Below, piece by piece: positions 6,001 through 32,156 of a stretch of DNA of 64,000 nucleotides. Positions within the stretch are counted from its first letter, which is position 1, and each line of letters begins with the position of its first letter. The notes under the pieces were generated by a model, which searched no databases, was not told the origin of the DNA, and saw only the letters and a list, made by a program, of their open reading frames with translations. A program made the position numbers and the translations under genes. The stretch is taken from the IMG/VR virus record IMGVR_UViG_3300023175_000012, positions 32,001 through 96,000 of that record; one strand, 5' to 3'. The DNA comes from a virus (Duplodnaviria; Caudoviricetes).

Positions 6001-7038
6001 AACGTCACCTAATAGATATTCTTGATCATCTACCCACTCACCTCTCCATCTTAGGCCAGTGTTTAGTCGTTGCCAATAGTTTGTATCAGTAGGTGTTTGA
6101 TCTTGGTGATCTGCTGTACAAATATATGTGTAGCCACCGTATCGAACAACTTCTCCTACTCTATAATCTTGAAGTGTACTGTCATCTTGCCAGTCACCTA
6201 AAAATCTAATACCTTGTGAGAATAGTTGCCAGTCTGTAGTTTCTACGACAGGATTTTTCTCGCTATGGTTAGTAAGTGCAATATATTGGTTGCCGCCGTA
6301 TCTAACAATATCACCTTTTTGATATTGTCTTAGTGCTTCCCAGTCTGATTCAAATTGGAATCCTCTAACAAATTGTTCCCAATTTGCACTATCTGTACTA
6401 AACAATGTTGAGCCAGTATGTTCAGTAGTACAAATCCAAAGAGCTGCACCATACTGAACTACGTCATTAACTTTATATCTAGTTCCAGATGTCCATGTAC
6501 TTTTGTATTCGATACCTGCATTAAATACGTCCCAACTTGCCTGGTCTGCTTCTAGCCCGTCGGCTTCAGTTGCAGCAGATGTATGATATGTATTACACAC
6601 ATAAGTTTGGCCGCCGTATTTTACTAGATCATTTATTAGGTACTTTGTATCTACGGTCCAGTCGCCTTTCCATGCTAAACCGTCAGCATAGACATCCCAA
6701 TTAGCAATATCAGCTTCTAGGCCAGCTGCTACTGTTGCTTGTGATGTGTGAACAACTTTACAAATGTATAATCTTGCACCATATTGTACAATATCTCCGT
6801 AAACATATCCGGTGCTTGTTGCCCACTCACCCTTCCATGTTTGACCGTCACTTACAAGATTCCATTTAGGTGGTACTATTTCAAAATCTGTAAAGAAATC
6901 AGTTGCACTTGTGTGGCCAATCACACAAATGTATACCTTACCTCCGAATCTTACAACATCGTCTTTGTAATATGTAGTGGCAGAAGACCATGCGTCTTTC
7001 CACACAAATCTTATTCTACCTAGTTTAAATTCTGCCAT
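25..7038 (-). CDS. Giant virion structural / fibre-like protein (2337 aa), paralog of 7089..13091
   Basis: N-terminal Trp-rich repeats (W-x-G-x-W...Y-x-x-x-D-[VI]-V-x-Y-G-G-x-x-Y-x-C...H, carbohydrate-binding-module-like); repeated KCERD[IM]GY helical units; BNR/propeller-like YSxDGxTW repeats; C-terminal TGHDFLD...STDQDGNFR shared with its paralog. RBS and TATAAATA box upstream. Confidence 0.75.
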   Translation of the reverse strand: MAEFKLGRIRFVWKDAWSSATTYYKDDVVRFGGKVYICVIGHTSATDFFTDFEIVPPKWNLVSDGQTWKGEWATSTGYVYGDIVQYGARLYICKVVHTSQATVAAGLEADIANWDVYADGLAWKGDWTVDTKYLINDLVKYGGQTYVCNTYHTSAATEADGLEADQASWDVFNAGIEYKSTWTSGTRYKVNDVVQYGAALWICTTEHTGSTLFSTDSANWEQFVRGFQFESDWEALRQYQKGDIVRYGGNQYIALTNHSEKNPVVETTDWQLFSQGIRFLGDWQDDSTLQDYRVGEVVRYGGYTYICTADHQDQTPTDTNYWQRLNTGLRWRGEWVDDQEYLLGDVVRFTDNSYVCVQGHFSEGDDFSTIQTQPGGGGAQNSRPDLDTTGTYWQVLSIGNEASVLTTKGDLVYYAAGGPARLPVGAEGQFLQVSNNQTPEWAYMGVADDVYYVATHGADTPAPTNGRSIDKPWKTIRYAAEQVERGAKNPQARRLLELNRYFIQREIVEWTDAQITGNISPFTTGFDYDSAKCERDMGYIIDAVIWDITHGGNVKSREAALSYINDTVGSPYLTQKAETVASINYGLEVIQAVLNQEAPAVNYQVNNGDNSTAIVAQYFDASLSSETVYTEISNLVKIITDAITAGNADNIPDRLIRNSLIKVATGKYYEVLPIIVPAECCIIGDELRSTNVFPRKSNNSTLTSAEDYLYSNTAIERVEAIIGDIVEGVAVTATTGNTQTQSTLYPLANNETGYVRQATEQLARLYRRRTDWALGRKEEAIATFTLADEMADPNAGYARNLLIANREFLKAELIGYITENYPDLKYSRTACKKDVGYLIDAVAYDLTYGGNWQTVNAGEAYYVGATSNLPAAQKAATLAAYGYLKGIMQTVGRNITVTPGTQSTVEQVVGDPGDAASATTIGDLLDDFINIVDNGTGSETIVYPSITGAAAGLQTDHSLLGSAAATIKTDTTNWITANFPNLTYDSAKCERDIGYLLDAARYDWCLGTTFASTVAAISYLRKPSAKVTGDQKEATLASYEYARNAARAEVSEAASLAQINNTFVTTNDIILGGSNEGSNRAAEDQDVYAGIQQLELNKEFIAKEAVAYVNDYYADSVTATTAATGALTVTSTGWLRQNRPIKFTGTAIGGLTLNQTYYVKNILSSTTFTISSTIGGTDVTVTDDSGAMDVEKDYDYNVTLCERDIRSIVDGMIWDLKYAPNYRRTYTGNINLTVPATYATRYASRYYVNSVIGSQEEDFYYLRNGTGIRLQTLEGLQGDMTAETAAGTSRVTAGAYASLDPGWGPDDDRCWITARSPYVQNCTTFGNAATGQRIDGALHNGGNDSIVSNDFTQVISDGIGAHILNNGRAELVSVFTYYSHIGYLAETGGRIRATNGNNSYGDYGSVAEGVDPDETPTTGIVDNKTQYNATIASAVTDQDTILTAEFTHAGNDYTEVTFNVFGPGSGESVIGDEFRDEALIQARVIDDQVDGDAGGSGYLTASNTAQSGNATSITLSATDGNLNTSYPGMKVLIVGGAGAGLYALIDTYDAGTKVATVIKESDGTAGWDHFVPGTPFVSPNASSTYEIEPAVSFSAPTRSTQNVVITSNIYEDFGFFETSQQVNNQGADTYAGTGSNATFNIDRVGAKYYVALNSAGSGYTRLETITVAGTSLGGTSPENDLVITLTSIGTSGEVIDFDFTGIGAKGKFVALSDDTSAATSGDVATWSNVTLPQQCDRFTTGLLNDGSSQYKSSAFVAVATGSSNAVLSEDLSTFSTSALPAGLDTSTGVDVQYGYLGAGSNRFVVIAQNDTDIAYSDNAGTSWTLSSAALPNTGFTSITNGAGKYVAVRTGSNQAAYSVDGITWTASTLPASSNWSKVVWGNGRFIAISNNSVNGAYSLDGITWYALTIGTEGAALPTDICYGQGMFMVTSADTNSVCYSDYGLIWSNLTVTANVSGYKLAAFGNINQEPAWLAIADGTTTQVASNKLGARARGRVNIANEKIFEVKLAEPGSGYGGTPPTITITDPNNIDDVVFQNRLGNGALGNPSFADRGTGFSAASMEVDGQTSNGNADFLQNGSFVAVRRLTERPVAGSNITFDSLPGQYFKLVTVVSFLGTNPGSHTAFLQLSPSMTIADAPADGDGVTSRIRYSQVRLTGHDFLDVGTGSFAETNYPGLPLQIPVQAQETYDVDGGRVFFTSTDQDGNFRVGDLFQIEQATGVANLNAEAFNIAGLQELTLGEVTLGGNSASISEFSTDPFFTANSDSVVPTQRAIKAYIEAQIGGGGAALNVNSVTAGDIFISSNIITTVSGELINITANMNFTGPVTGYPLAYQYFLR

Positions 7039-7058
7039 TTTTTAATGCTCCGTTATTG

Positions 7059-7066
7059 TATTTATA
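7059..7066 (-). promoter_or_regulatory. T4-type late promoter TATAAATA
   Basis: Exact TATAAATA on minus strand about 20 nt upstream of the 7038 start; a gp55-like sigma factor is encoded in the window. Confidence 0.75.
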
Positions 7067-7088
7067 CATTTTTTACTGTCCTATAAAA

Positions 7089-10000
7089 TTACTTCATACC
7101 ATCATCAAAATTACGAAGTAACATCATTTGTCCAACATATGAACCGCTTATTCCTACAGGATTGCCGTTAGCGTCTGTACCTTCCATATTAACAGGCACA
7201 CCAACTAATATTTGTGCATCTTGTATGTTGTCAAATTGATTGTCTGGTCCTCCTACATAAATCTGTCCCGCTGAGAATGCATTTAACTCTAGATCTGAAC
7301 CGCCAACGCTTAATCTATCTGCAAGGAATGTTGCAATAGCTCTCTGTGTTGGTACTACATTATTACTATCCTCAGCAAATGTTGGGTCTGTACTAAACTC
7401 TCTAACAACCGCGCCCGAACCACCTAGTCTTACACCACCTAGTGATAGTTCGCTAAGGCCATCTAGATCAAAGAACTCGGCACTAATTGTCACAACACCA
7501 GTAGCCTGTTGTACTGAAAATAGTTCACCAGCTCTAAAGTTACCGTCTTGGTCTGTACTTACGTAGAATATACGTCCGCCTCCGGTTTCGTATACTTCAT
7601 TTTCAGGCGCACTAACAAAGTAGTTGCCGCCTGCATATATTTCTGGGTAATTTGTTTCTAAGAAATTACCAGTACCAATGTCTAAGAAGTCATGTCCTGT
7701 AATTCTACATTGGCTAAAGTTTTCGTTAATTGTTACACTTGTATTATGAACTAGATCGTATTCGTTACGCATTCTAGGACTGATTTGGAATTGTACTAGT
7801 TTTGTTCCATTACCAGTGCCATCATCACCTAAATCTGTTGCAACAGCAACTCTAAAACTTTTTAGATCGTCTGGATTGTCTGTTGTATCGTCTGGAATAT
7901 TAGGGAACAACAACTGGCTACCAATAGTTGGTACTCTCGGTAAACCTGCAATTTTTATAATGTTAGTTTCTGGTATAAAGTCAGCATAGCCATCGCCTGT
8001 AATATCAACTCTTGTAGTGCTTGATCTGTAACCAATACCTCTGTTAGTCCAACTTGGTTGTGCAAGAACTCCATTACCTACTCTATTTTCCCACCCAATG
8101 CCTACAGTGTATGCATTATCTGTAATTGTAAATACTGGTGGGTTTTGAGGAGAATATCCACTACCGCAATCAAGAATCTTTATTGTTTGTATTAAGCCGC
8201 CACTACCTAGTTTTGCACGGACTTTTACTTTTGCACCTGTTTCTACTTTTGCAATGCCTCCTATTGCGGTGTTTTTAGTTCCTATAATCCAACTACCTAC
8301 GTTATTAACAACACCAAAGCCTAGTCCAAAGTAAGTTTTAGACGCTGCAAGAGTTCTGCCTGTCCACAGTATTCCGTCTTCAGTAGTTGCCGCAAAATTT
8401 GTGTTATTACCGTCTATATCGCCGCCAACAATTTGATTGTTTGCATCACATATAGCAAAGAACACACCTTCTGCAAACTTCATATCATTCCAACGCATAG
8501 TTGTTGATCCGTCCTGTGTTGGAGCATCTGCTCCTTGTGTCCAAGTTGAACCATCAAAACTATAGTAAGTTTCGCCTGTTTCTAGTAGTGCAAGATATCT
8601 ATTATTACCGTATGCTAACCCTGCAACCTGTAAATTAGGTGTTGCTGGGAACCCAGTATCAAATGTCCATGTAGTTCCATCTGTACTATGACCTACTACA
8701 CCGTCGTTACCTGCTACAGCAACAAACTTACCTTTACCGTATGTAAGTCCTTGCCATTCTGCTGATGCACTGTCACCAACAGCATCGTTAGGCATGTTAC
8801 TAGATGTCCATGTTATACCATCTGCTGATTGAATAACATTTGTAGAGTTTTCAGCAATAACAACAAATCTACCTTCTCCAAAAGTAATGTCAATCCAATC
8901 TTCCACAAAAGGTAATGTTACAGAATTCCAATTTACTCCATCTAAACTATATGCAGCTTCATCAGTACCTTTAGCAATAGCAACAAATCTATTTGCACCT
9001 GCAGCTACTTTGATCCAATCAATGGCTGTAGAGTTTGGCAATAATACTTCATTCCAACCTTGTCCTGTATCACTTTCTAACACAAAATTTGGTTTTGCGA
9101 TAGCAACAAACTTACCACTACGTCCTGTACCTGTTACAACTACACTTGTAATCGAGTTTGAACTATCGTCAGTTACACCACTCACTTTAATATGACAGTC
9201 ATTAGTAACATCATCGCCGCCTAATACACTACCTAAAATTGTAATAGAATCACCAATAGCGTATCCTAAACCACCATCTGCAATAGTTACTTCATAGACA
9301 AGTCCGTTTTTAGTAATATCAAATCTTGCATTAGCAGGAGCAAGACCATCTTGCGTTATAACGTCACCTGTTCCTGGTTGTCCTTCAATGTCTGTAAATT
9401 CAAAAGTTGTATTACTAAATGCAACATCTATAATATCTCTACCACTTGCAATGTTATAGTTGTTTGCTGCATATGACGGTGCCGATGATACTATGCGTGG
9501 TTCAATTTGATATCTAGTATTTGAGCTCAGTGTTGTTTCAATTGTAGTACCAGGAAGTAAATGATCCCACCCTGGTTGACCTGTGCTTTCTTTGTTTATA
9601 GAAGCAATTTGATTAAGTTCGTTATAGGCAGATACATAACCATATTGTCCTGTACCATCACCTGAAATAATATAAAGTGCTTGTCCTACAATTTCTTCTT
9701 CAGTAATTGTTTCGTTGACGTTTAAGGTAATACTTGTACTATCTCCAATAGTTGCTTGGTTTTGAATATTTGTATATCCTACTCCGCCTATTGCTCCGCT
9801 GTCTGCAGGATTAACAATTCTTGATTGGAATAATGCACCGTGTCTAATATCTTCGTGTAATGCTTCAGCATTTGCTCCTGCACCTGTTATAGTGCTTGTA
9901 GCTGTGGTATAATTTTCGCCTGCATTTGCATATTCATAAATTAGGATTTCATCACCAAACGCTCCTGCAAACACCCCGTCTACCGTTGCTTCATTATCTC

Positions 10001-19659: not shown

Positions 19660-19680
19660 GAAAAAGGGTGGACTTACCCT
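19660..19680 (-). terminator. Possible weak intrinsic terminator
   Basis: AGGGT-aagtcc-ACCCT followed by TTTTCT on minus strand, overlapping the stop of 19674..25214; stem is only 5 bp. Confidence 0.3.
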
Positions 19681-22600
19681 AGTATAAGAGTCCATTCGTC
19701 AAAGGCTTCGCCGAGAACTATCGCATCTGCATCACCAGTATCACCTGCAACAGATACCCATTCTGTACCGTTCCATATTTCTGCACCAGGTGCTTCTGTA
19801 TTATATCTAATTTCTCCAACAACCGGAGTTGCATCTCTAGTTGAATTGTCACCGGTAGGTAATACTATACCGCTAACTTGAGTATCAATTTTTACATATC
19901 CGTTATCAGTAGTTACAATATGTAAACCATCGTCGTTTGCAAGATTTTTAATCTTGTTGTCGTCAAACGACATATTATCAAACATCTTAACAGTACCCGC
20001 TCCATTTGGAACTAATTGCAATGCTGTATTATTTTCAGATGTAACTATGTTATTAGATATAGTAATATTTGCTGTTTTTAATGATGTGCTAATATTAACA
20101 CCGTCATAGGCTACGCTACCTACTTTAGTACCTGCTACTCTAAATTCAACTTCGTCATTGAGTGCTTGAACATTAGTCTGTGCGTCTTCACTAAACACAC
20201 CGCCAAAATACTGGTTTGCTTGACTGAATCCTTCAAATAGTCCATAATCAGTATTAAATCTAATGTCGCCGGCGTTACCGTTAGGCTCTAGCGAAGTTCC
20301 ACCGTCGTAGAACGTATCCGTTGGACCAAATACTGTTACAGCATCACCACCATCAACAGTGATAGGCTGTGGATCATTTACACCGTTACCACCATCTAGA
20401 ACTATTGTTGCTACAGATGCTACAATACGTTGTGAGCTATCGCCTATTGGAATCTGTATACTATGAGTACTATCAAACAATATTTCGTTACTGGTTATAG
20501 TTAGATCATTTCCACTAAACGTTTGTAATGTACTGTCTAACGCCCTTATACCTTCTAGATATATTTCTCCTGAGCCGCTTGTGCGTAATTCTAGATTACT
20601 GTTACTGTTTGTTGTTGTAATAACATTTTGAAATATTTCAATATCATCTGTAACTATAAACTTGTTAGCAGCTACAGCTTTTTCAATAAAAAATCCGTTA
20701 CTTGTTGCACTTGTAGCTGTTAAATTTTTATCTGCTCTACCTTGTTCTATAACAACATTTCCAGTTCCAGAACCAGTTATAGTCATGTCTCCGATATTGT
20801 TATTAAGTATTGTGCTATCTTCGAATGTAAAGTTTCCGAGATCGGTTCTTCTGTCAACAATTAAGTTTGTAGCAGAATAATCACCTGTAATATCTCTATT
20901 ACCAGTTTGTATAATATTTGCATTTACTGTTATAGGAGCATTAATTTCAGTACCTTGTAAAGATGTAGTTCCATCTATTTGAGATGTTCCGGTAACACTA
21001 AAGTTGTTGTCAATTTCAACATTTCCTGCCGCTCTAAGTTCTAAATTACTATTACTATTTGTTGTTGTAATTACGTTATCAAATATTTCTATGTCAGTTG
21101 AACTAACCATATTTTCTAATGCAACACTATCTAGAATTCTTAGACTACCAAATGACGCACTTGCTGCTGACATATCTCTACTTACAACAGTATCAGTAAA
21201 CACTACATCACCTGTGCCTGCGGTGTCAAGCACTACATCACCTGTCTGTGTATATTCTAAAACATTTCCGTCAATAGTCCAGTCTCCTAAATCAGTTTTT
21301 CTATCAACTGTTAAGGCTCCATTAATTGTGTAATCGCTTGTAAGTGTAACCGTAGAATTACCTGTACGAACAGTATCACCGTTTATGTTTAACGATCCTG
21401 TTACTGTAGTATCATCATTTATTACTGTTTGATCATTTACTGTAAAATTATTTGATATATTTAAACTAGCGTTATCAACAATAACCTGCCCTGTGCCATT
21501 AGCACGTAATTCTAAATCGCTATTGCTAAGAGTTGTTGTTACAACATTACCAAACGCTTCTATGTTTTCACTATCAATTAACGCCGCTTCAAAACTTTGA
21601 TCAGCAATAATGTTATTTGCATTTAGATCATTTACTGTAACATTTCTATCAAAAGTTGCATTATCTATTACTACCCTGCCTGTACCACTTGCACGTAATT
21701 CTAAGTCTGTGTTAGTTTCTTGAGAAGTAATCTTGTTGCCATGTATACCTACTCGTTCAAAGTCTTGATAATTTTCAGTAAGAACTAATTTGTCTGTTGT
21801 TAATTGTCCTGTTAAGTTATAGTCTTGTGCAAAGTTGGTATTGCCAACAATATTTGTAGTCCCTGTAATTTCTATATTTTCAGTATTTGTTTGGCCATTA
21901 ACATTTAAATTGTTAGAAATAGTTGTGTTGTCAACATATAATATGTTGCCACTTCCGTTAGCTCTTAAATCTAAACTTTCATTAGAAACTTTTGTGCTGA
22001 TAAAATTATCATCTATTTCTATAATACTAGGCGGAATAACAATTTCATTAAGTAGTATATCTTGAGCAACTGTAACATTTACAACATTTGCGTCATTTAC
22101 TGTTAAATTATTATTAATAACAACATTGTTGTTAGGTATAAGAACTTTGCCAGTTCCACTAGCACGTAGTTCTAAATCTGTGTTCGATGTAGTCGTAGTA
22201 ATAAAATTATCATCAACTAGGATTTCTTCAAACTGTGCAAATCCAGTTACATCTAAATTTTGTGATATTGTAAGATTACCATTAAAACTTCTATCACCTG
22301 TTTGATATGAAAACCCTGGTAGGAATGTTCCATTAACTGTTACATCTTGAAAATCACTTGCTCCAGTTACAGTAAAATTATTATTAACTTGTACATCATT
22401 GTTAGGTATAAGAACTTCGCCGGTTCCACTAGCACGTAGTTCTAAATCACTATTACTGTTTGTTGTAGTAATAAAGTTATCTTCAATTAGAATATTGCCG
22501 TTACTAATTTCACCAGCAATGTTATAGTTTCCAGTTTGGGTTAAGTTACCTGAATGAACAAGTGACCCTGTTATATCAGTTCCTTGTAGTGTTGTGTTAC

Positions 22601-25214
22601 CGTTAACAGTTAAGTCTTCTTGAATAATAACATCACTACTGTTAATTTGAACTTCGCCGGTACCGTTTGCATCTAAGTTTAAGTCTTGATTAGTGTTAAA
22701 TGCTTCTATTGTGTTGTTATTAATTCTTATTTCGTCAGTTTCTAAAGTTCCAAATGTCACAGTTCCAGCAATGTCTACATTTCCAGTCTGTAGTGTACTT
22801 TCGTTAATTAATAACCCGTTAACTCTTACTAATTCTTGTGTAGTAACTTCGCCTGTACCTGCAGCTCTTAATTCTAAATCGCTATTACTTTGTGTAGTAG
22901 TAATAAAATTATCATCAATTAGTATATTCTCTAGTTGGGCTTCTCCTTGAATGTCAAGATTTCCTTGGATATTAAAATCGTTAATACTAAAGTTTGTTGC
23001 TTCTAAGTCTGCATTACTTGTTAACACTTGTAGTGAAACATTTTGAAAAGTACTTGTTCCTAATGCTGTAAGTTGATTATTAATATTAACTTGATCTGTA
23101 ATATTAACTTTACCAGTTCCACTAGCTCTAAGTTCTAAGTCTGCATTCGATTCGTTTGAAGTAATATAATTTGTTTCTATAGTGACGCCGTCTATTTCTG
23201 CATCATTTACATAAGTCCAATTCCACCTTTTTGTTTCGTTACCTAAAGTAAAAGTTAAGTCTTGATTGGGTTCTAAATCTTGACTAAATTCTGTATTAAA
23301 CGTTACTGTGTCTGTAGGTTGATCGCCTGCTAATGAAAGTGTGCCATCAAACGTAAAGTTATCTGTAATGTCTAAATTACCTACAAGGTTAGTATTGCCG
23401 TTTAGATTTATAAAGGTACTAGCAGGACTGTCAATATTAATTTCGCCTGATAGGCTTTCAATTGTGTTGCCGCTAAATCTTATATTTTGATTTTGAACTT
23501 TATTGCCATCAATAATTGCAATATTTCCGTTAGTTGTAACAGTTAGTCCTGCTAATGCATTAACTGTAGATTCGTCAATAGTTAGTGTACTGTTACCAGT
23601 TTCTAGATCAACAAAAAACTGATCGCCTACTCTAAAATTTCCTAAATGGTCCGTAGAACTGTAATAAATTTTACCCGAGTTTAATTCAATAGTTTCATTT
23701 GTCTGTATAACTCTGCTAGGATCATTGTCTACAAATTTTCCAGATCCTATATAACCAAAGTTGTGTTGAATAAGATACATTAATGTATCAGCGCCATCTG
23801 CTTCAGCGCCTTTGTTACCGTATACGTTTGCTGAACCAATTGAGCGTAGTTCTGCACCGTACTTAATTGTACTTCCGTCTGTGCTTAAATGTCCTGTTGC
23901 ACCATTAACAGCATATAAACCTCTGTCTGCAAAATATGTAAATGAATTTAACCACTCTACCCTAACACCATTTGTCATTGTAAGTGCATCTACACCTGGT
24001 GTAATAAATGTTACAGCATGGAACAACATGCTTGCTTCATTGCTTGTACCTAATACACTTGCTCCGTCTACTAACGCACCTTTACCAGCATCGCCACTAG
24101 CATATCCTCTAGGATCGCTTGCACTAGTTGTGCTACCTTGTGTGCTTACTGTAACGTTTTGAACATAAGGACTACGTGTTGTAATTGTTGCATTAGGAGC
24201 AAATCTAAAAGCATAACCTGTGTCATTTACACTGTCATAAAAGAAATCTTTAATTGTAAAATTTGCTACGGTACTTTCGCCGTTAAGATGAAATATATCT
24301 GTAGAGCTTTGACTACTTGGCGGTGTAATAACTGTGTTTCTTAAATCGTGACCAACTACTGTAACACCTGCAGGAACAACAATTGGTGTAGATTCTTCGT
24401 ACTCTCCAGGAAATACATGGATAGTATCTCCTGCCGTTGCTTGCGTTACAGCATAATCAATAGTTTCAAATGGGTGTTGTACATGTGTACCAGTGTAGTC
24501 ATTGTCGCCATTTTTAGATACGTAATAAGTTTTACCTGGTCTATTATTAAGGTCAACTCCGCCTAATATAAAACTACTAGATTCAACAGCAACACCATTA
24601 ACAAGCCTAGTATTCAATTCTAACCAACGCTTGTTATACTTTCCTAAATCGTATACTTCTGTGACTGTAGGATCTATATTACTGTTTACATCAGTTTGAA
24701 ATGTTACAGTATCATTTAATGCTGTTGAATCATCACCGGTGTCGCCAAAAATAATGTTACCATCAAGAGTGATATTGCCTGTTGCATGTATATTACCGTC
24801 TGTATGTAGATCGCTGTAAACTTCTACACGACCCGTTCCGTTAGGACGTAGTTCTAAATTAGAATTGCTATTTGTAGTAGATATGTAATTATCATCTATA
24901 AAAATGTCGCCTGTTTTAGCGTTTGAAGATGTTATCTTATATCTAGCATCAAGAAATAATTGTCCCGGAAAAGGCTGTATTGTTGAGTTTTGAAAGTTTA
25001 TATTAGCAATATCTGCTTGTGTATCGCCGTATAATGTAGTAGTTCTAGTAGTATCTAAAACATGTAAATCGTTAGTAGGAGCATTATTTCTTATACCTAT
25101 TTTGCCATTATTAACATCAAGGTAAAGTAAGTCTGTTTCAAAGGCCAGATCAATGCCGTTTCTTTCTAGATTAGCGAATAATAGTGGTCCTGAGATTCTA
25201 CCTACTTGCGACAT
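19674..25214 (-). CDS. Giant repeat-rich virion fibre-like protein (1846 aa)
   Basis: Starts MSQVGRISGPLL; same LELRA[SN]GTG repeats and NGVRVEWLNSFTYFA core as 13878..19532; AATAAATA box (25233-25240) and AGGAG upstream. Confidence 0.75.
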   Translation of the reverse strand: MSQVGRISGPLLFANLERNGIDLAFETDLLYLDVNNGKIGIRNNAPTNDLHVLDTTRTTTLYGDTQADIANINFQNSTIQPFPGQLFLDARYKITSSNAKTGDIFIDDNYISTTNSNSNLELRPNGTGRVEVYSDLHTDGNIHATGNITLDGNIIFGDTGDDSTALNDTVTFQTDVNSNIDPTVTEVYDLGKYNKRWLELNTRLVNGVAVESSSFILGGVDLNNRPGKTYYVSKNGDNDYTGTHVQHPFETIDYAVTQATAGDTIHVFPGEYEESTPIVVPAGVTVVGHDLRNTVITPPSSQSSTDIFHLNGESTVANFTIKDFFYDSVNDTGYAFRFAPNATITTRSPYVQNVTVSTQGSTTSASDPRGYASGDAGKGALVDGASVLGTSNEASMLFHAVTFITPGVDALTMTNGVRVEWLNSFTYFADRGLYAVNGATGHLSTDGSTIKYGAELRSIGSANVYGNKGAEADGADTLMYLIQHNFGYIGSGKFVDNDPSRVIQTNETIELNSGKIYYSSTDHLGNFRVGDQFFVDLETGNSTLTIDESTVNALAGLTVTTNGNIAIIDGNKVQNQNIRFSGNTIESLSGEINIDSPASTFINLNGNTNLVGNLDITDNFTFDGTLSLAGDQPTDTVTFNTEFSQDLEPNQDLTFTLGNETKRWNWTYVNDAEIDGVTIETNYITSNESNADLELRASGTGKVNITDQVNINNQLTALGTSTFQNVSLQVLTSNADLEATNFSINDFNIQGNLDIQGEAQLENILIDDNFITTTQSNSDLELRAAGTGEVTTQELVRVNGLLINESTLQTGNVDIAGTVTFGTLETDEIRINNNTIEAFNTNQDLNLDANGTGEVQINSSDVIIQEDLTVNGNTTLQGTDITGSLVHSGNLTQTGNYNIAGEISNGNILIEDNFITTTNSNSDLELRASGTGEVLIPNNDVQVNNNFTVTGASDFQDVTVNGTFLPGFSYQTGDRSFNGNLTISQNLDVTGFAQFEEILVDDNFITTTTSNTDLELRASGTGKVLIPNNNVVINNNLTVNDANVVNVTVAQDILLNEIVIPPSIIEIDDNFISTKVSNESLDLRANGSGNILYVDNTTISNNLNVNGQTNTENIEITGTTNIVGNTNFAQDYNLTGQLTTDKLVLTENYQDFERVGIHGNKITSQETNTDLELRASGTGRVVIDNATFDRNVTVNDLNANNIIADQSFEAALIDSENIEAFGNVVTTTLSNSDLELRANGTGQVIVDNASLNISNNFTVNDQTVINDDTTVTGSLNINGDTVRTGNSTVTLTSDYTINGALTVDRKTDLGDWTIDGNVLEYTQTGDVVLDTAGTGDVVFTDTVVSRDMSAASASFGSLRILDSVALENMVSSTDIEIFDNVITTTNSNSNLELRAAGNVEIDNNFSVTGTSQIDGTTSLQGTEINAPITVNANIIQTGNRDITGDYSATNLIVDRRTDLGNFTFEDSTILNNNIGDMTITGSGTGNVVIEQGRADKNLTATSATSNGFFIEKAVAANKFIVTDDIEIFQNVITTTNSNSNLELRTSGSGEIYLEGIRALDSTLQTFSGNDLTITSNEILFDSTHSIQIPIGDSSQRIVASVATIVLDGGNGVNDPQPITVDGGDAVTVFGPTDTFYDGGTSLEPNGNAGDIRFNTDYGLFEGFSQANQYFGGVFSEDAQTNVQALNDEVEFRVAGTKVGSVAYDGVNISTSLKTANITISNNIVTSENNTALQLVPNGAGTVKMFDNMSFDDNKIKNLANDDGLHIVTTDNGYVKIDTQVSGIVLPTGDNSTRDATPVVGEIRYNTEAPGAEIWNGTEWVSVAGDTGDADAIVLGEAFDEWTLILG
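22420..22520. repeat. 101 bp near-identical dispersed repeat, copy 2
   Basis: Matches 16540..16640 with 3 substitutions. Confidence 0.85.
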
Positions 25215-26154: not shown

Positions 26155-27168
26155 TTAAAAGAGCATACTATAAACTAGTGCTCTATTTCTACTTATAATT
26201 TCATCTCGTTGGTTTTGTGCATTTACGAAATACATACCTGTGCCTGCTGATTGAGATGGTTTAGCATACAACAGTATTCCGTCATCTGGTTCTACTGGAT
26301 CGGTTATTCCGTCAACACCTTCGTGTGGAGTATAACCTAATCTTAAGTTGTCGTCAACTACAACATGTCCGGTACCAGTTGCACTTAATATTAAATCTTC
26401 TTGACTTGTACCAAGTGTTTTAATTTCAGTACCATGAACAGTTTGTTCAATACGTATTCCATGTGTATCAGTCCAAGTTGCTCTAACATCTTGAACTAAG
26501 TTACCGTCAACAACAGTTTCTGCTCTACTAGGACCCGAAACACTGTCATCATACACATGTACCTTAGTATCGCCTACTTGAACTCTGTTAGGTACAACAG
26601 TACCAAAGAAGTTAAAGATAGCATCATCTACATATTTTTTGTTAGGTATATGGTCGTCATCAGTAACTCGTTGCTCATAGTTTGCTGTTCCTGTAACAGT
26701 AACAACTCCGGGGTTTGCTGTACTTACACCTGATAATGTATATCTACCAAGTAAGTTTAAATCTACGCCCGGTGTTGTAATACTTACAGTTTCAATGCCT
26801 CCGATTCTACCTCCTGGGTATCTCGATGACCAAGCACCTTTATCAACTGTGCCTCCGTTAGCTGTATCTGTCCAAGTTACATTTTCTACAAATAAGAATT
26901 GAGCGTCTTGTATTGTACCCCTATCAACACGAATACCGGAAGCGCCATCTCTAGTAATGCCGTTTCCGGTTTCGCCTTTGTTAAGTTCAATGATATTGTC
27001 TTCAACAACAGTGTTGACTGTATCAAGAGTAGTAGTAGTGCCTTCAACAACTAGGTTGCCGGTGATGTAAACATCTCCAACTTCCGTACCTGTATCAAGT
27101 GTAATTCTACCACCTTCTTTAACAACTACTCTGTAGTTGCCGTCAGCTACTCTTAAATACTTGTCCAT
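26155..27168 (-). CDS. Virion structural protein (337 aa)
   Basis: Beta-rich ITGNLVVEGTTTT...EDNIIELNKGE and HIPNKKYVDD motifs typical of phage fibre or structural proteins. Confidence 0.65.
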   Translation of the reverse strand: MDKYLRVADGNYRVVVKEGGRITLDTGTEVGDVYITGNLVVEGTTTTLDTVNTVVEDNIIELNKGETGNGITRDGASGIRVDRGTIQDAQFLFVENVTWTDTANGGTVDKGAWSSRYPGGRIGGIETVSITTPGVDLNLLGRYTLSGVSTANPGVVTVTGTANYEQRVTDDDHIPNKKYVDDAIFNFFGTVVPNRVQVGDTKVHVYDDSVSGPSRAETVVDGNLVQDVRATWTDTHGIRIEQTVHGTEIKTLGTSQEDLILSATGTGHVVVDDNLRLGYTPHEGVDGITDPVEPDDGILLYAKPSQSAGTGMYFVNAQNQRDEIISRNRALVYSMLF

Positions 27169-27180
27169 AAGTTATTATCC

Positions 27181-27636
27181 TTATGCGTCTTCAGTGAAGT
27201 CGTCGTCGTCAGTACCAAGTAGTACGTCATCATCACCAGCTTCTTCAACTTGTACAGCACCGTCAACAGCACTTACTGTGAAGTTCCATGGAATCGATTG
27301 TCCGTTTAATGCATTCGAACCTGTTGCACTGTGAGCAATGATAGTTGCCTTACGTCCTGAAATTTTACTAACGCCGTAAGTTTCACCGTCATCACCTTTA
27401 ACACTGATGCACATTTCTTCGCCTGTTAAAGCAGCAGGTAATTTTCCTGTAGTTAAAAAACGATCGTATGTAGTTCCTGGTGTGCCAATTGCGGCAACAC
27501 GAAACTTTTTAGATCCTAATTGTTTTACAATGTAGCCTTCTAGAACAGCTGATGTGCCATCATAGAAATCTACTTTGATTTCATTGCCACCTGCTGTAGC
27601 AGGTCCAAAGTATCTTTTATTAAGTGGTCTTCCCAT
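27181..27636 (-). CDS. Hypothetical late (likely structural) protein (151 aa)
   Basis: Starts MGRPLNKRYFG; strong AGGAG RBS; first gene after a late-promoter box. Confidence 0.7.
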   Translation of the reverse strand: MGRPLNKRYFGPATAGGNEIKVDFYDGTSAVLEGYIVKQLGSKKFRVAAIGTPGTTYDRFLTTGKLPAALTGEEMCISVKGDDGETYGVSKISGRKATIIAHSATGSNALNGQSIPWNFTVSAVDGAVQVEEAGDDDVLLGTDDDDFTEDA

Positions 27637-27738
27637 TTGTTTTCTCCTATAAAGTAGTCCTATCCGGGTTCTATCCGGTACGCTGTGGGTAACAGCATAA
27701 GTCCGCCTTGCGGCACACTATCTGACACAAGTATTTAT
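27637..27738 (-). promoter_or_regulatory. Late promoter (GATAAATA) with ~90 nt structured 5' leader
   Basis: ATAAATA at 27738..27732; hairpins GCC-GCAA-GGC, UGCUGU/ACAGCG and CCGG/CCGG precede the RBS. Confidence 0.55.
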
Positions 27739-27749
27739 CAAATAAGAAG

Positions 27750-27773
27750 AAAGCCCGCACAGTGGCGGGCTTT
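27750..27773 (-). terminator. Intrinsic terminator closing the upstream ncRNA
   Basis: AAAGCCCGC-6nt-GCGGGCTTT followed by CTTCTTATTT on minus strand. Confidence 0.8.
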
Positions 27774-27775
27774 AA

Positions 27776-27995
27776 GAATAAGCAAAATAGGTAGGACTCG
27801 GTTACACCTACAAGCCACGGACCAAATACCATTTCATCTCCGCGACAACCTGCTTCCGCTCGGTAGAGCGATGTGACATTGCCTGTTTCCAGTACAACAC
27901 CTGGGTACCACCCCTAAACAGTCAAGTTCGACGCTCTGGTAAACGCCTCTTCCTTGCACTATAAACATTGACTAGCTAAGTCTTTGTTGCTTATG
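27776..27995 (-). ncRNA. Unidentified ~220 nt structured ncRNA
   Basis: Bounded by a sigma70-type promoter and a terminator; ends pair (AUAAGCAA/UUGCUUAU); several internal stems; GC-rich relative to flanks; no credible ORF. Confidence 0.65.
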
Positions 27996-28000
27996 TTATT

Positions 28001-28028
28001 AATATAACATCTTTAAAATAAAAGTCAA
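28001..28028 (-). promoter_or_regulatory. Sigma70-type (early) promoter driving the ncRNA
   Basis: TTGACT-16 nt-TATATT with extended -10 TG; same GTGGTTGAC context as the gp47 promoter. Confidence 0.6.
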
Positions 28029-28110
28029 CCACTTTTTATGAAAAATTAATGATTTTCTGCAAGATTTTTGTCAAAAAGTGTGTTTAAATAATAATTGAAA
28101 GGAGATTGTT

Positions 28111-28182
28111 ATGTGGACAAAACCTAGCTATACAGAAATGCGTTTTGGCTTTGAAGTTACAATGTATGTAATGAACAAGTAA
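28111..28182 (+). CDS. pqqA: Pyrroloquinoline quinone precursor peptide PqqA (23 aa, MWTKPSYTEMRFGFEVTMYVMNK)
   Basis: Hand translation; W-x-K-P leader and G-x-E-V-T-x-Y core with the Glu-x3-Tyr pair; AAGGAG RBS 6 nt upstream; TTAAATA box at 28084-28090; terminator downstream. Confidence 0.92.
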   Translation: MWTKPSYTEMRFGFEVTMYVMNK

Positions 28183-28192
28183 AACCGTAGTC

Positions 28193-28222
28193 AAAAAAAT
28201 AGGGCCCTAAGGCCCTATTTTC
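28193..28222. terminator. Bidirectional intrinsic terminator between pqqA and the major capsid gene
   Basis: AAAATAGGGCC-ctaa-GGCCCTATTTT, with an A-run on the left and a T-run on the right. Confidence 0.85.
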
Positions 28223-28238: not shown

Positions 28239-29417
28239 TTAGCTAAAGCTCACGCTTCCGTTAGTAATCGCAACTTTACCTAAGTAATCTGCTGCGTTAC
28301 CAAGTGATGAAGCTGTGTTTGATAGCTCAACGTAACCATATCTGGTCATAAATGACACAGTTGGCTCGAATGTTGCTGGATCAAGCACAACACCACTTGA
28401 CATTAGTGGAATGTATGGGCAATAGAACGCTGGTGCGTCTGATTCACTTGAACCCTTATAACCAACAAGTACTGGTGCATCGTCTGCACTGTATGTGTTG
28501 ACGTACACTTTCATTGCGTTATTCAATGTACCAACCATTTTAGTGTTAGTTGGTGCTTCGAATGTACCTTCAGTTGTTCTTGCGAACGCAGAAGTTGTAG
28601 CACTTTGTAGAATTGTTAACGCAAATGGGCTAACAACAGCGTAGTTACCTGCGCCTCTACGTGTACGCTGTGCAATCAAGTTTGCAACTCTGTTGATTTG
28701 AACAGCTAATGCAGCATGCTCGTCACCAACGAATGTTGCTGTACCTGATACAGCACTTTGGTCATATGTTTCAGCAGCATTACCAGCTAGGCTGTTTAGG
28801 CTTGCTAAAACTTCTTGGTCAATCTCAGCGGTAATTTCTTGTGCTAATGCAGCCATAATTTCTGCTTCAACATCAATACCGTGCATTGATTGTGCATCCT
28901 GTGCAGCTTCAAAAGTCCAACGAGCTGATAGCTTTCTGGATTTAGCTTCTACAGTTTGCTTTAAGATTTGGATGGACAATTTACGTCCAGCTTGACCTTC
29001 TAAAGCTGCTGTTGTAGCGGCTTTATCGTCAGCTGCACCGGAATATCCTTCCGCAATCTTGAATGGGCTAAGTGCCTCTTCACCTGCTACAGTATCAGTT
29101 CCGCTTGTGCTATCAAAAGCTTCAGCGTAACGAACACGTAGAGTGTGGATTTGGCCAACTGGGCCAGTCATTGGTTGAACACCAACTAGCTCGTTAGCAA
29201 TAACAGTTGGCATAACACGTCTGATAACTGGTAGGATTACACGGTTTAGTGTAGCTACGTTACCAGCGGATGTTGCTCCAGCTGTTGCACTCTCAGACAA
29301 ATACTTACGAGTGTTTTCTAGTGTGGCAGCCATTACCGCCTTCTTGTTACCGTCCAGGCCTTCAAGAAGAGCGTCTTTGGTTTCTGTCCAGCGACTTTCT
29401 AATAGTTCTGACATCAT
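28239..29417 (-). CDS. gp23: Major capsid protein (T4 gp23-like)
   Basis: GVQPMTGPVGQI, VEAKSRKLSARWTFEAAQD, EITAEIDQE, FYCPYIPL and FMTRYG gp23 motifs. Confidence 0.95.
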   Translation of the reverse strand: MMSELLESRWTETKDALLEGLDGNKKAVMAATLENTRKYLSESATAGATSAGNVATLNRVILPVIRRVMPTVIANELVGVQPMTGPVGQIHTLRVRYAEAFDSTSGTDTVAGEEALSPFKIAEGYSGAADDKAATTAALEGQAGRKLSIQILKQTVEAKSRKLSARWTFEAAQDAQSMHGIDVEAEIMAALAQEITAEIDQEVLASLNSLAGNAAETYDQSAVSGTATFVGDEHAALAVQINRVANLIAQRTRRGAGNYAVVSPFALTILQSATTSAFARTTEGTFEAPTNTKMVGTLNNAMKVYVNTYSADDAPVLVGYKGSSESDAPAFYCPYIPLMSSGVVLDPATFEPTVSFMTRYGYVELSNTASSLGNAADYLGKVAITNGSVSFS

Positions 29418-31175: not shown

Positions 31176-32156
31176 TTACTTGCCGACTACAGATGATTTG
31201 TTATCAGCGTTTTCTGGCTTACCTTTTTTCTCTGCACCGTGTCCTGGCTCGCTTTTGCCAGCTTTAGACGCTTTACCGCCTGGTACATTGATGTTTCCGC
31301 CATCTTGGTCTTTTGCGTTTAAATCACCTAGACCAGCATGGTCGCCGCTTCCTGCTTCTCCGCCTTTAGCGATGTTAGCTGAAGTGCCACCCATGTCATT
31401 TGCTCCTGCTACTGGTGACTTTGTGTTGTCGCCATTGTCGCCTGAGCTTTTCTTTTCTGCGCCGTGTCCGCCTGCTACTTTGTCAACGTACTCGCGCATT
31501 TGTTCTCTTTCTGATTTTGCAGACTTAGACTCTTCTACTTCTTTTTCATCAGCTTCGTCAACTTCTTCATCAGATGCTTCGTCTACTTCTTCGTCAGCAG
31601 CTTCGTCTACTTCTTCGTCAGTTGCTTCAAATGCAAATGCTTCTTCTGGCTCTTCTTCACCAGCTTCGTCGCCTTCGCCTTCGTCGCCCATCATTTTTTC
31701 AAATTCAGCTTTTAGGTCGTCTAGTGCATCTTCAAGGTCAACTACGCGATCTTCAAGGTCTTCATCTTCTTCACCTTCTTCGTCGCCTTCTTCGTCGTCG
31801 CCTGCTTCGATGTCACCCATCATGTCGTCTACTGGATCTCCGCCCATTTCAGGCTCACCTTCGACTTCAAATTCGTCTAAATCAAAGTTTTCGTCAACTT
31901 CTTCGTCGCTTGACTCATCTACTTCTTCATCAGATGCTTCATCTACTTCTTCGTCAGTAGCTTCATCTACTTCTTCGTCAGTAGTTTCTTCGACTTCTTT
32001 GTCTTCTTCTTCGATTTCTAAATCTTGTTCAATTAAGTTTGCATAGATGTCTCTTGACTTCTCTACAACAATTTCGTGGAATAGTTCTTCTGCACCAGCT
32101 TTGTCTTCATTAACAAGACGCTCGAGCATTTCTTCGAACTTGTTTTTATCTGCCAT
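31176..32156 (-). CDS. Highly acidic prohead core / internal protein (326 aa)
   Basis: D/E-rich with DEEVDEA tandem repeats; lies in the head operon; TTAAATA box at 32203-32209 and AGGAG RBS. Confidence 0.7.
   Translation of the reverse strand: MADKNKFEEMLERLVNEDKAGAEELFHEIVVEKSRDIYANLIEQDLEIEEEDKEVEETTDEEVDEATDEEVDEASDEEVDESSDEEVDENFDLDEFEVEGEPEMGGDPVDDMMGDIEAGDDEEGDEEGEEDEDLEDRVVDLEDALDDLKAEFEKMMGDEGEGDEAGEEEPEEAFAFEATDEEVDEAADEEVDEASDEEVDEADEKEVEESKSAKSEREQMREYVDKVAGGHGAEKKSSGDNGDNTKSPVAGANDMGGTSANIAKGGEAGSGDHAGLGDLNAKDQDGGNINVPGGKASKAGKSEPGHGAEKKGKPENADNKSSVVGK
31548..31625 (-). repeat. 21-bp coding tandem repeat (DEEVDEA[ATS]), second block
   Basis: About 3-4 units of tcttc[ga]tca...gcttc[ga]tc[ta]act. 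Confidence 0.7.
31890..32000 (-). repeat. 21-bp coding tandem repeat (DEEVDE), first block
   Basis: About 4-5 imperfect units encoding TDEEVDEATDEEVDEASDEEVDESSDEEVDE. Confidence 0.7.

Follow-up and report, generated by a model that had tools for sequence, protein, structure and literature searches.

A divergent manA-type RNA, probably its own transcription unit and possibly self-assembling, in a pelagimyophage-like virus

Which RNA is encoded on the minus strand between the major capsid gene gp23 and the gene of a 151-amino-acid (151-aa) protein in IMG/VR virus record IMGVR_UViG_3300023175_000012, and does it serve the gene behind it or act as a product of its own? The window analysed here comprises 64,000 nucleotides (nt) of this linear record of 115,784 bases (positions 32,001 to 96,000). 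At window positions 27,750 to 28,028 an initial annotation, made from the sequence alone, had described a self-contained gene for a structured non-coding RNA of ~220 nt that matched no family recognised by its author. According to comparison with relatives, the RNA at 27996..27776 is, with near certainty, a real manA-type RNA (Rfam family RF01745). The reading that best explains the locus, to which we give a probability of roughly 0.55, is that of an early-transcribed, stand-alone manA-type RNA that may be capable of self-assembly.

Family membership and conserved structure

The default Rfam scan, which applies gathering thresholds, reports freshwater-2 as the sole match in the region. It misses manA because the window copy scores 47.4 bits, below the manA gathering score of 55.2 bits. 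In E-value mode manA is the second-best match, extending over model positions 1–192 of 192 with all helices present, and the E-values equal 5.3e-11 for 701 nt searched and 2.1e-12 for the whole virus record. A covariance-model scan finds one manA-type copy in that record. As for relatives in named phages, blastn against phage genomes gives one, in Pelagibacter phage Mosig (75.5% identity over 236 nt), where the RNA occupies an unannotated stretch directly upstream of the rubrerythrin gene and scores 64.0 bits on the Rfam model, above the cut-off. Thus, the idea of a new motif has to be given up: the window RNA matches the full manA model and is homologous to copies that pass the threshold.

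Most members of this group, however, stay below the curated cut-off. Eight viral-contig homologs score 41.1–54.7 bits on the Rfam model, each over its full length, and a scan of 19 further loci at the gathering threshold adds L147 (69.2 bits) and L107 (55.9 bits) and no others, so that the cut-off is reached by 3 of the 28 homologous loci scanned (L001/Mosig, L147, and L107). Since so few homologs reach it, the window RNA is, on comparative grounds, part of a divergent manA clade mostly missed by the Rfam threshold. It is common among marine and estuarine viruses that resemble pelagimyophages. The nearest named relative of the window is a Kyanoviridae pelagiphage, with gp23 and the prohead protease adjoining the RNA gene.

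When first described, from marine metagenomes, T4-like cyanophages, and two gamma-proteobacteria, manA was put forward as a candidate riboswitch and probable cis-regulator located in 5' untranslated regions (UTRs) (Weinberg et al. 2010, PMC2864571). With the motif described there the window RNA shares the GUGGUA and ACC loop motifs, the GNRA loop, and the occurrence in marine T4-like phages. It differs in the core junction, which reads GUGCAAGGAAGA instead of the consensus GUGaCUGAAUAA, and in an extra outer helix that closes the 5' and 3' ends. All 10 sequences compared share an identical core, UAGUGCAAGGAA.

Relatives were gathered in two ways, via the downstream 151-aa protein (189 found, 80 loci kept) and via a conserved pattern in the RNA (at least 120 loci). 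A covariance model, R1, was built from 7 sequences with a hand-mapped structure of 70 pairs; it gives at least 135 matches in viral contigs (27 in 82 sources, 54 in 60, and 54 in 60) and assigns 219.4 bits to the Mosig copy and 104.7 bits to L147. A search by nhmmer with the single window sequence recovered the RNA in just 17 of 81 loci, versus the 27 covariance-model matches in 82 sources. The alignment used below, A3, holds 100 of the 135 matches. The 35 omitted include 8 cut by contig ends (L081, L047, L139, L138, L116, L126, L198, and L161), copies on the same contig as a kept copy or identical to it in score (L062, L078, L067, L068-L070, L077, L140, L184, L173, L150, L178, L114, L131, L158, L200, L160, L163, L151, L155, L175, L100, and L199), and some weak matches (L027, L165, L191, and L174).

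In A3, 89.5% of the cells are paired, compared with 63.5% in shuffled alignments and 37–47% with slid partners, and double-sided changes occur in 61 of the 70 pairs; these values have to be discounted somewhat, as A3 is fitted to R1 and so favours the model's own pairs. None of the 500 shuffles reaches the observed value in any of five measures, and 13 of the 14 helices are 75–100% paired. Plain MAFFT alignment of 10 sequences followed by RNAalifold arrives at these core helices as well, and 15 of its 32 pairs show compensatory changes. The covariation check that the initial annotation had suggested for its structured RNA thus comes out in its favour.

Regarding individual helices, the proposed pairing between the two ends of the transcript corresponds to the closing helix AUAAGC/GCUUAU, which is 88.7% paired, covaries in 6 of 6 pairs, and is absent from the Rfam manA model. 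Four internal helices of the initial annotation stand as drawn, namely GUAGG/CCUAC (100% paired), GGCGUU/GAGCGUC (99.3%), CGCUC/GAGCG (93.8%), and CUG-GAAA-CAG (93.3%). Its GGGU/ACCC helix is also present, in a shifted register, as GGG/CCC with the loop GUGGUA (99.3%). The remaining one, AGUCAA/UUGACU, was rejected: its 55.8% equals the shuffled mean, and 255 of 500 shuffles are as high. The distal P8 stem AGAU/AUUU (helix 13 of R1) is 39.6% paired and was drawn wrongly; R1 was kept as built.

The fold energy of the window RNA is unremarkable (minimum free energy, MFE, of −80.5 kcal/mol, z −1.63, with 11 of 200 shuffles folding as well) and was not used as evidence. Because the promoter match and the fold energy are each near chance when taken alone, the case rests on comparison with relatives. 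The region is judged non-coding from the same comparison, since a 44-aa open reading frame (ORF) inside the RNA, rejected as a coding candidate, is intact in just 4 of 100 homologs; the length of the aligned span is spread evenly across the three values modulo 3. Likewise in line with the initial annotation, which could not match the RNA to a transfer RNA (tRNA) or transfer-messenger RNA (tmRNA), ARAGORN reports 0 genes of either kind within the window.

Promoter, terminator, and the gene downstream

The minus-strand promoter TTGACT-16-TATATT is present where the initial annotation had placed it. It matches 10 of 12 positions and carries the extended −10 dinucleotide TG. Considered alone, the site is no better than chance, as the surrounding stretch of 2 kilobases (kb) contains 4 promoter-like sites versus 4.4 ± 2.1 in shuffles; it becomes credible because a promoter is conserved at the RNA 5' end in the homologs. 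At least 9 of 12 positions are matched within 80 nt abutting that end in 92 of 100 homologs versus 167 of 2000 random 80-nt windows from the same loci, and at least 10 of 12 in 89 of 100 versus 30 of 2000. The usual form is GGTTGAC(A/T), 16–17 nt, and TG-n-TATATT or TATAAT. Of the 92 promoter-bearing homologs, 55 have a −10 element that ends 3–4 nt short of model position 1, and therefore the RNA is predicted to begin at the closing helix. Eight copies have no such promoter, four of them being L134, L120, L147, and L190.

At the other end, the strong terminator said to follow the RNA directly is found 2–3 nt past it, with 9 pairs (6 of them G-C) and a U-rich tail. The 2-kb stretch has 5 terminator-like sites versus 1.3 ± 1.1 in shuffles, and an intrinsic terminator lies 0–18 nt after the RNA in 57 of the 98 homologs with enough flank. 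Further downstream, ATAAATA occurs within 200 nt in 44 of these 57 terminator-bearing loci; for comparison, the T4-type late promoter consensus is quoted as TATAAAT in the available part of PMC9004378. In the window, GATAAATA and the freshwater-2 leader appear, from the sequence, to serve the downstream 151-aa gene. Unlike the manA filing (Cis-reg, 5' UTR), the window copy is thus separated from the next ORF by a terminator, a late-type promoter motif, and a different leader RNA. With a sigma-70-type promoter and a terminator of its own, and with a separate late-type motif and leader behind it, the RNA is probably its own transcription unit, as the initial annotation had supposed of an independent gene driven by an early promoter. 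All 8 related viral-contig loci have freshwater-2 in front of the 151-aa gene, and this RNA may be a late-mRNA leader of the structural-region gene; a literature search on freshwater-2 returned nothing relevant.

The same arrangement could also be that of a riboswitch or another cis-acting leader, with a domain that senses a metabolite or condition and a terminator that acts as the expression platform, controlling whether early transcripts extend into the freshwater-2 leader and on into the structural genes downstream. We consider this rather unlikely, although PMC2864571 put the family forward as a candidate riboswitch, the promoter is flush with the domain, the terminator stands immediately behind it, and the highly conserved core is what would be expected of a binding pocket. 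The terminators themselves do not behave in this way. They vary freely, with 48 distinct 5' arms among 57, whereas the 3' end of the RNA is conserved. A crude search for an anti-terminator found no conserved alternative pairing between the last 70 nt of the RNA and the terminator arms, complementarity being 4.96 versus 4.82 for the 5' arm (23 of 300 permutations as high) and 5.34 versus 5.35 for the 3' arm. In addition, the MFE structure of the window RNA contains the body and the terminator together. Because the terminators are diverse, show no excess complementarity to the RNA, and fold alongside its body, we read them as constitutive ends of a discrete RNA and not as riboswitch platforms. 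The late-type promoter motif and leader of the gene downstream argue in the same direction, as do the mixed downstream partners of the homologs (the structural gene, gp32, redox genes, and tRNA-like sequence) and a copy that follows a tmRNA; a literature search found no report of a manA ligand.

Genomic context was compared in 83 loci found via the RNA pattern alone. A terminator followed by the 151-aa gene is seen in 26 of them, a terminator followed by something else in 16, gp32 downstream with no terminator in 16, and the 151-aa gene downstream with no terminator in 5; the other 20 fall outside these classes. The L147 copy (L147:5282-5830) lacks its own promoter and begins no more than ~10 nt past a permuted tmRNA, while L105 and L092 have a tRNA-like sequence, called by eye, directly after the RNA.

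Part of this diversity weighs against the stand-alone reading and favours a cis-acting role. No terminator was detected in 41 of the 98 homologs. At least 16 terminator-less copies lie 57–96 nt before a gp32 gene (Pfam gp32, 148–152 bits), and other terminator-less copies lie 11–21 nt before rubrerythrin or redoxin genes, so that the distances to these start codons range from 11 to 96 nt. A position before gp32, rubrerythrin, or redoxin is the classic place of a cis-regulator and matches the way in which the manA family is filed. The gp32-preceding copies (L130, L166, and ~14 more) share an A/U-rich spacer to gp32, and the copies before rubrerythrin or redoxin genes are L001/L187 and L124. In Mosig, gp32 follows the rubrerythrin gene. 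A connection with gene-32 leader control is conceivable.

Evidence on transcription comes from 19 RNA runs that contain part of the 1-kb stretch, all of them salt-marsh metatranscriptome contigs, of which four (X1–X4) were examined. Such contigs give no ends, strand, or level, DNA may be present in the libraries, and missing cover does not prove absence. Since exact-match contigs cover 27000..27634 in X1, X2, and X4 (depth ~8–13) and 27000..27637 in X3 (two pieces, depth ~4–6), sequence identical to the window over ~27000..27634 is present in all four runs. The RNA body is covered by contigs of relatives in two of the four, over 27793..27914 in X2 and, in X4, by close relatives with 5 differences each over 27797..27952 (depth 525) and 27923..28037 (depth 114). 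No contig covers the body in X1 and X3, and none covers 28037..28097 in three of the four runs. Taken together, this amounts to a weak indication of transcription over the RNA region. Two of the contigs fit a discrete transcript poorly: an exact X2 contig (27693..27816) bridges the terminator, as a read-through riboswitch would allow, and the relative's X4 contig ending at 28037 reaches 43 nt upstream of the predicted start. Both could reflect read-through, another promoter, or carried-over DNA. The start and stop used here are predictions.

Loop complementarity and possible self-assembly

According to the available text of a recent preprint on cryo-electron microscopy of manA RNA (10.64898/2026.07.01.735769), the molecule forms pentamers, from which decamers, octamers, or an icosahedral-like cage of 60 subunits are built. 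Subunits are reported to touch through L5-L7' and L8-L9' kissing loops or, alternatively, through L5-L7' and L3-L8' combined with a GNRA-receptor contact of L6. In the window RNA the loops were numbered by helices in Rfam order, with the result that L6 is the GNRA loop, as in the preprint. With this numbering, the window RNA has complementary sequences at the loop pairs named in the preprint, and these pairs covary in 100 homologs.

Within-molecule complementarity over the 100 homologs exceeds that of permuted pairings for L5-L7, L8-L9, and L3-L8 (z 6.2, 5.0, and 11.8, respectively), and for each of the three 0 of 500 permutations are as high. At least four contiguous loop pairs are possible in 49, 89, and 84 of the 100 copies, respectively. 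The number of distinct duplexes is 21 for L5-L7, with variants such as UGUC/GACA, UGC/GCA, UAU/AUA, and UAGU/ACUA, and 44 for L8-L9, among them AUGGAAU/AUUCCAU, AAUGAUC/GAUCAUU, AGGAU/AUCCU, CUGAU/AUCAG, and CGAGA/UCUCG. Because complementarity is kept while the duplex sequences change, the pattern of substitutions indicates that the L5-L7, L8-L9, and L3-L8 contacts are under selection. As for L1, a palindrome of at least 6 nt is present in 52 of 100 copies versus 723 of 5000 shuffles and takes at least four forms (UAAUUA, UAGCUA, GAUAUC, and UUAUAA); the L5 control, which reaches 34 of 100 through its closing pairs, is a weak one. These figures give a hint that a palindromic L1 is relevant to assembly.

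Under the preferred reading, host RNA polymerase would start at the strong sigma-70-type promoter ~7 nt before the closing helix, transcribe the multi-helix RNA of ~220 nt, and stop at the intrinsic terminator, giving a transcript of ~250 nt. The next gene would have a late-type promoter and a freshwater-2 leader to itself. The RNA would then be a free, abundant molecule made early, and it would not sense a signal on behalf of the gene beside it. Complementarity between loops (L5 with L7, and L8 with L9 or L3) and the GNRA loop L6 might let copies bind into pentamer-based particles like those assembled in vitro in the preprint, and scaffold, sequestration, and decoy are candidate roles for such a particle in the infected cell. 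That the window RNA acts as an oligomeric particle is a tentative proposal to which we give less than an even chance. Doubtful to a slightly greater degree is the general form of the idea, in which manA-type RNAs are early stand-alone phage genes whose products form pentamer-based particles or cages in the infected cell, the loop covariation resulting from selection on assembly.

Several considerations limit the step from covarying loops to assembly. The oligomers in the available part of the preprint were seen in vitro with heat-annealed RNA at 10 mM Mg2+ (10.64898/2026.07.01.735769). The constructs described there are other family members, and the window clade is known from its sequence. The loop numbers of the preprint were mapped by helix order and the identity of L6 with the GNRA loop alone, independently of its figures. 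Finally, covariation is blind to the difference between intermolecular kissing and intramolecular tertiary contacts. The loop pairs might thus lock a monomer, for example a ribozyme or an element stabilising a 5' end, with the cages seen in vitro not being the cellular form. A possible pseudoknot drawn in manA by Weinberg et al. in the accessible part of PMC2864571 would agree with such internal contacts, as would the non-physiological assembly conditions. The preprint text, in contrast, places L5-L7', L8-L9', and L3-L8' between neighbouring subunits in several family members (10.64898/2026.07.01.735769), and we regard the monomer as improbable.

The suggestion in the initial annotation of a protein-sponging or 6S-like RNA, made early to titrate a host factor or regulate RNA polymerase, would suit a stand-alone gene with a strong early-type promoter and several exposed conserved loops that could be protein sites, but it has a slim chance in our estimate, as the list of 23 Rfam matches with E-values up to 10 contains no 6S family, the fold is multi-branched and globular and not a 6S-type rod with a central bubble, the loops covary mutually whereas a protein site would stay fixed, and no partner protein was identified.

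Surroundings of the locus and meaning for the manA family

Coordinates of the RNA gene, its loops, and its neighbours are collected in Table 1. The gene downstream of the RNA has 189 relatives in viral contigs and no match in Pfam or PHROG. Besides gp23, a scaffold-like gene and the prohead protease lie upstream of the RNA on the same strand.

Table 1. Features of the manA-type RNA locus in the window
Feature	Position	Strand	Basis or remark
Sigma-70-type promoter	28001..28028	-	−35 TTGACT 28028..28023; 16-nt spacer; TG 28009..28008; −10 TATATT 28006..28001
Predicted transcript start	near A27994	-	inferred, ~7 nt past −10
manA-type RNA body, ~220 nt	27776..27996	-	covariance model R1, 235.9 bits
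Rfam manA match	27781..27981	-	RF01745, within RNA body
Outer closing helix, 5' strand AUAAGC	27989..27994	-	pairs with 27783..27778
Outer closing helix, 3' strand GCUUAU	27778..27783	-	pairs with 27994..27989
L1 apical loop UAGCU	27974..27978	-	with next A, palindrome UAGCUA
L3 loop UACCAG	27936..27941	-	complementary to L8 (UGGUA/UACCA)
L5 loop GUGGUA	27906..27911	-	complementary to L7 (UGGUA/UACCG)
L6 loop GAAA	27886..27889	-	GNRA tetraloop, by sequence
L7 loop CUACCG	27861..27866	-	complementary to L5
L8 loop core AUGGUAU	27826..27832	-	complementary to L3 and L9
L9 loop UGUAACCGAGU	27796..27806	-	loop complementarity with L8
Intrinsic terminator	stem-loop 27773..27750 with U-rich tail; whole 27741..27773	-	terminator scan
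GATAAATA, T4-type late-promoter-like	27732..27739	-	~15 nt before freshwater-2; function inferred
Freshwater-2 RNA	27634..27717	-	RF02980, 76.6 bits (cut-off 49.9); ends on ATG of 151-aa gene
151-aa 'MGRPLNK...' gene, downstream neighbour	27181..27636	-	ORF
pqqA, 23 aa, divergent neighbour of RNA gene	28111..28182	+	Pfam PqqA PF08042, 46 bits
gp23 major capsid gene, upstream of RNA gene	28239..29417	-	Pfam Gp23, 329 bits

The initial annotation had also regarded the RNA and pqqA as one small island. The pqqA gene is real (Table 1); its association with the RNA is a loose one. Six other loci encode a PqqA-like peptide, four with the RNA (L111, L114, L137, and L197) and two without it (L044 and L048), and most relatives have a glutamine riboswitch aptamer where the window has pqqA. 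Of the 8 related viral-contig loci, 7 have this aptamer (RF01739, 43–51 bits) at a distance of ~250–300 nt upstream of the RNA (L050, L054, L056, L061, L064, L065, and L076). The spacer between gp23 and the 151-aa gene seems to be a hot spot for swapping small RNA or peptide cassettes. Melnitz/Mosig-like phages carry a glutamine riboswitch and a tmRNA according to the available part of PMC9004378. They belong to the same virus group as the window and show the same habit of carrying small structured RNAs, the RNA families being different.

The window pqqA has its own ribosome-binding site and promoter-like site and is convergent with gp23, with which it shares a two-way terminator at 28196..28221. 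RNA-library contigs over pqqA have a summed depth of 7,000–9,800 in three of the four runs and may stem from host pqqA. Its DNA is 82.7–89.7% identical to stretches unannotated or labelled 'hypothetical' in four Methylophilales phages, one Methylophilaceae phage, and one Caudoviricetes record, a similarity that hints at a methylotroph host. Elsewhere in the window, an ORF of 1846 aa on the minus strand (19674..25214) has many '...TTTNSNSDLELRA(S/A)GTG...' repeats and likely encodes a fibre or another virion protein. CheckV completeness is 31% for the 115,784-base record, which is low against a Mosig/Melnitz-like phage of ~141 kb, so that either the estimate or the kinship is off.

Structured RNAs of comparable standing have been described in bacteria and phages. 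ROOL, GOLLD, and OLE are large self-assembling bacterial or phage RNAs; some such RNAs multimerise, and their function is unknown. The tRNA cluster of phage T4 encodes the stable RNAs C and D, which are transcribed alongside the tRNAs. All of these are structured phage or bacterial RNAs like the one in the window and differ from it, as they are generally described, in size and fold.

The manA family as such is already known. Relative to the literature found, three things are new: the existence in pelagimyophage-like viruses of a large manA clade that scores under the Rfam cut-off, the self-contained gene organisation of this clade with its added closing helix, and the natural covariation of the manA loop contacts. 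The name manA has 0 occurrences in PMC9004378, and Riboswitch Scanner found no riboswitches in pelagimyophages (PMC7029224). Annotation at default Rfam thresholds will overlook most of this clade.

The manA RNA has been an orphan 'riboswitch candidate' since 2010, and the 2026 preprint provides cages in vitro without biological context, which the present locus and its relatives add. The role of oligomerisation in nature thereby becomes testable. The cultivated pair of Mosig and Pelagibacter HTCC1062 carries a copy. Should manA-type RNAs indeed assemble in the infected cell, this would be the first RNA-only cage with a biological role, and the 16-year label of 'riboswitch candidate' would be wrong for at least the clade to which the window RNA belongs.

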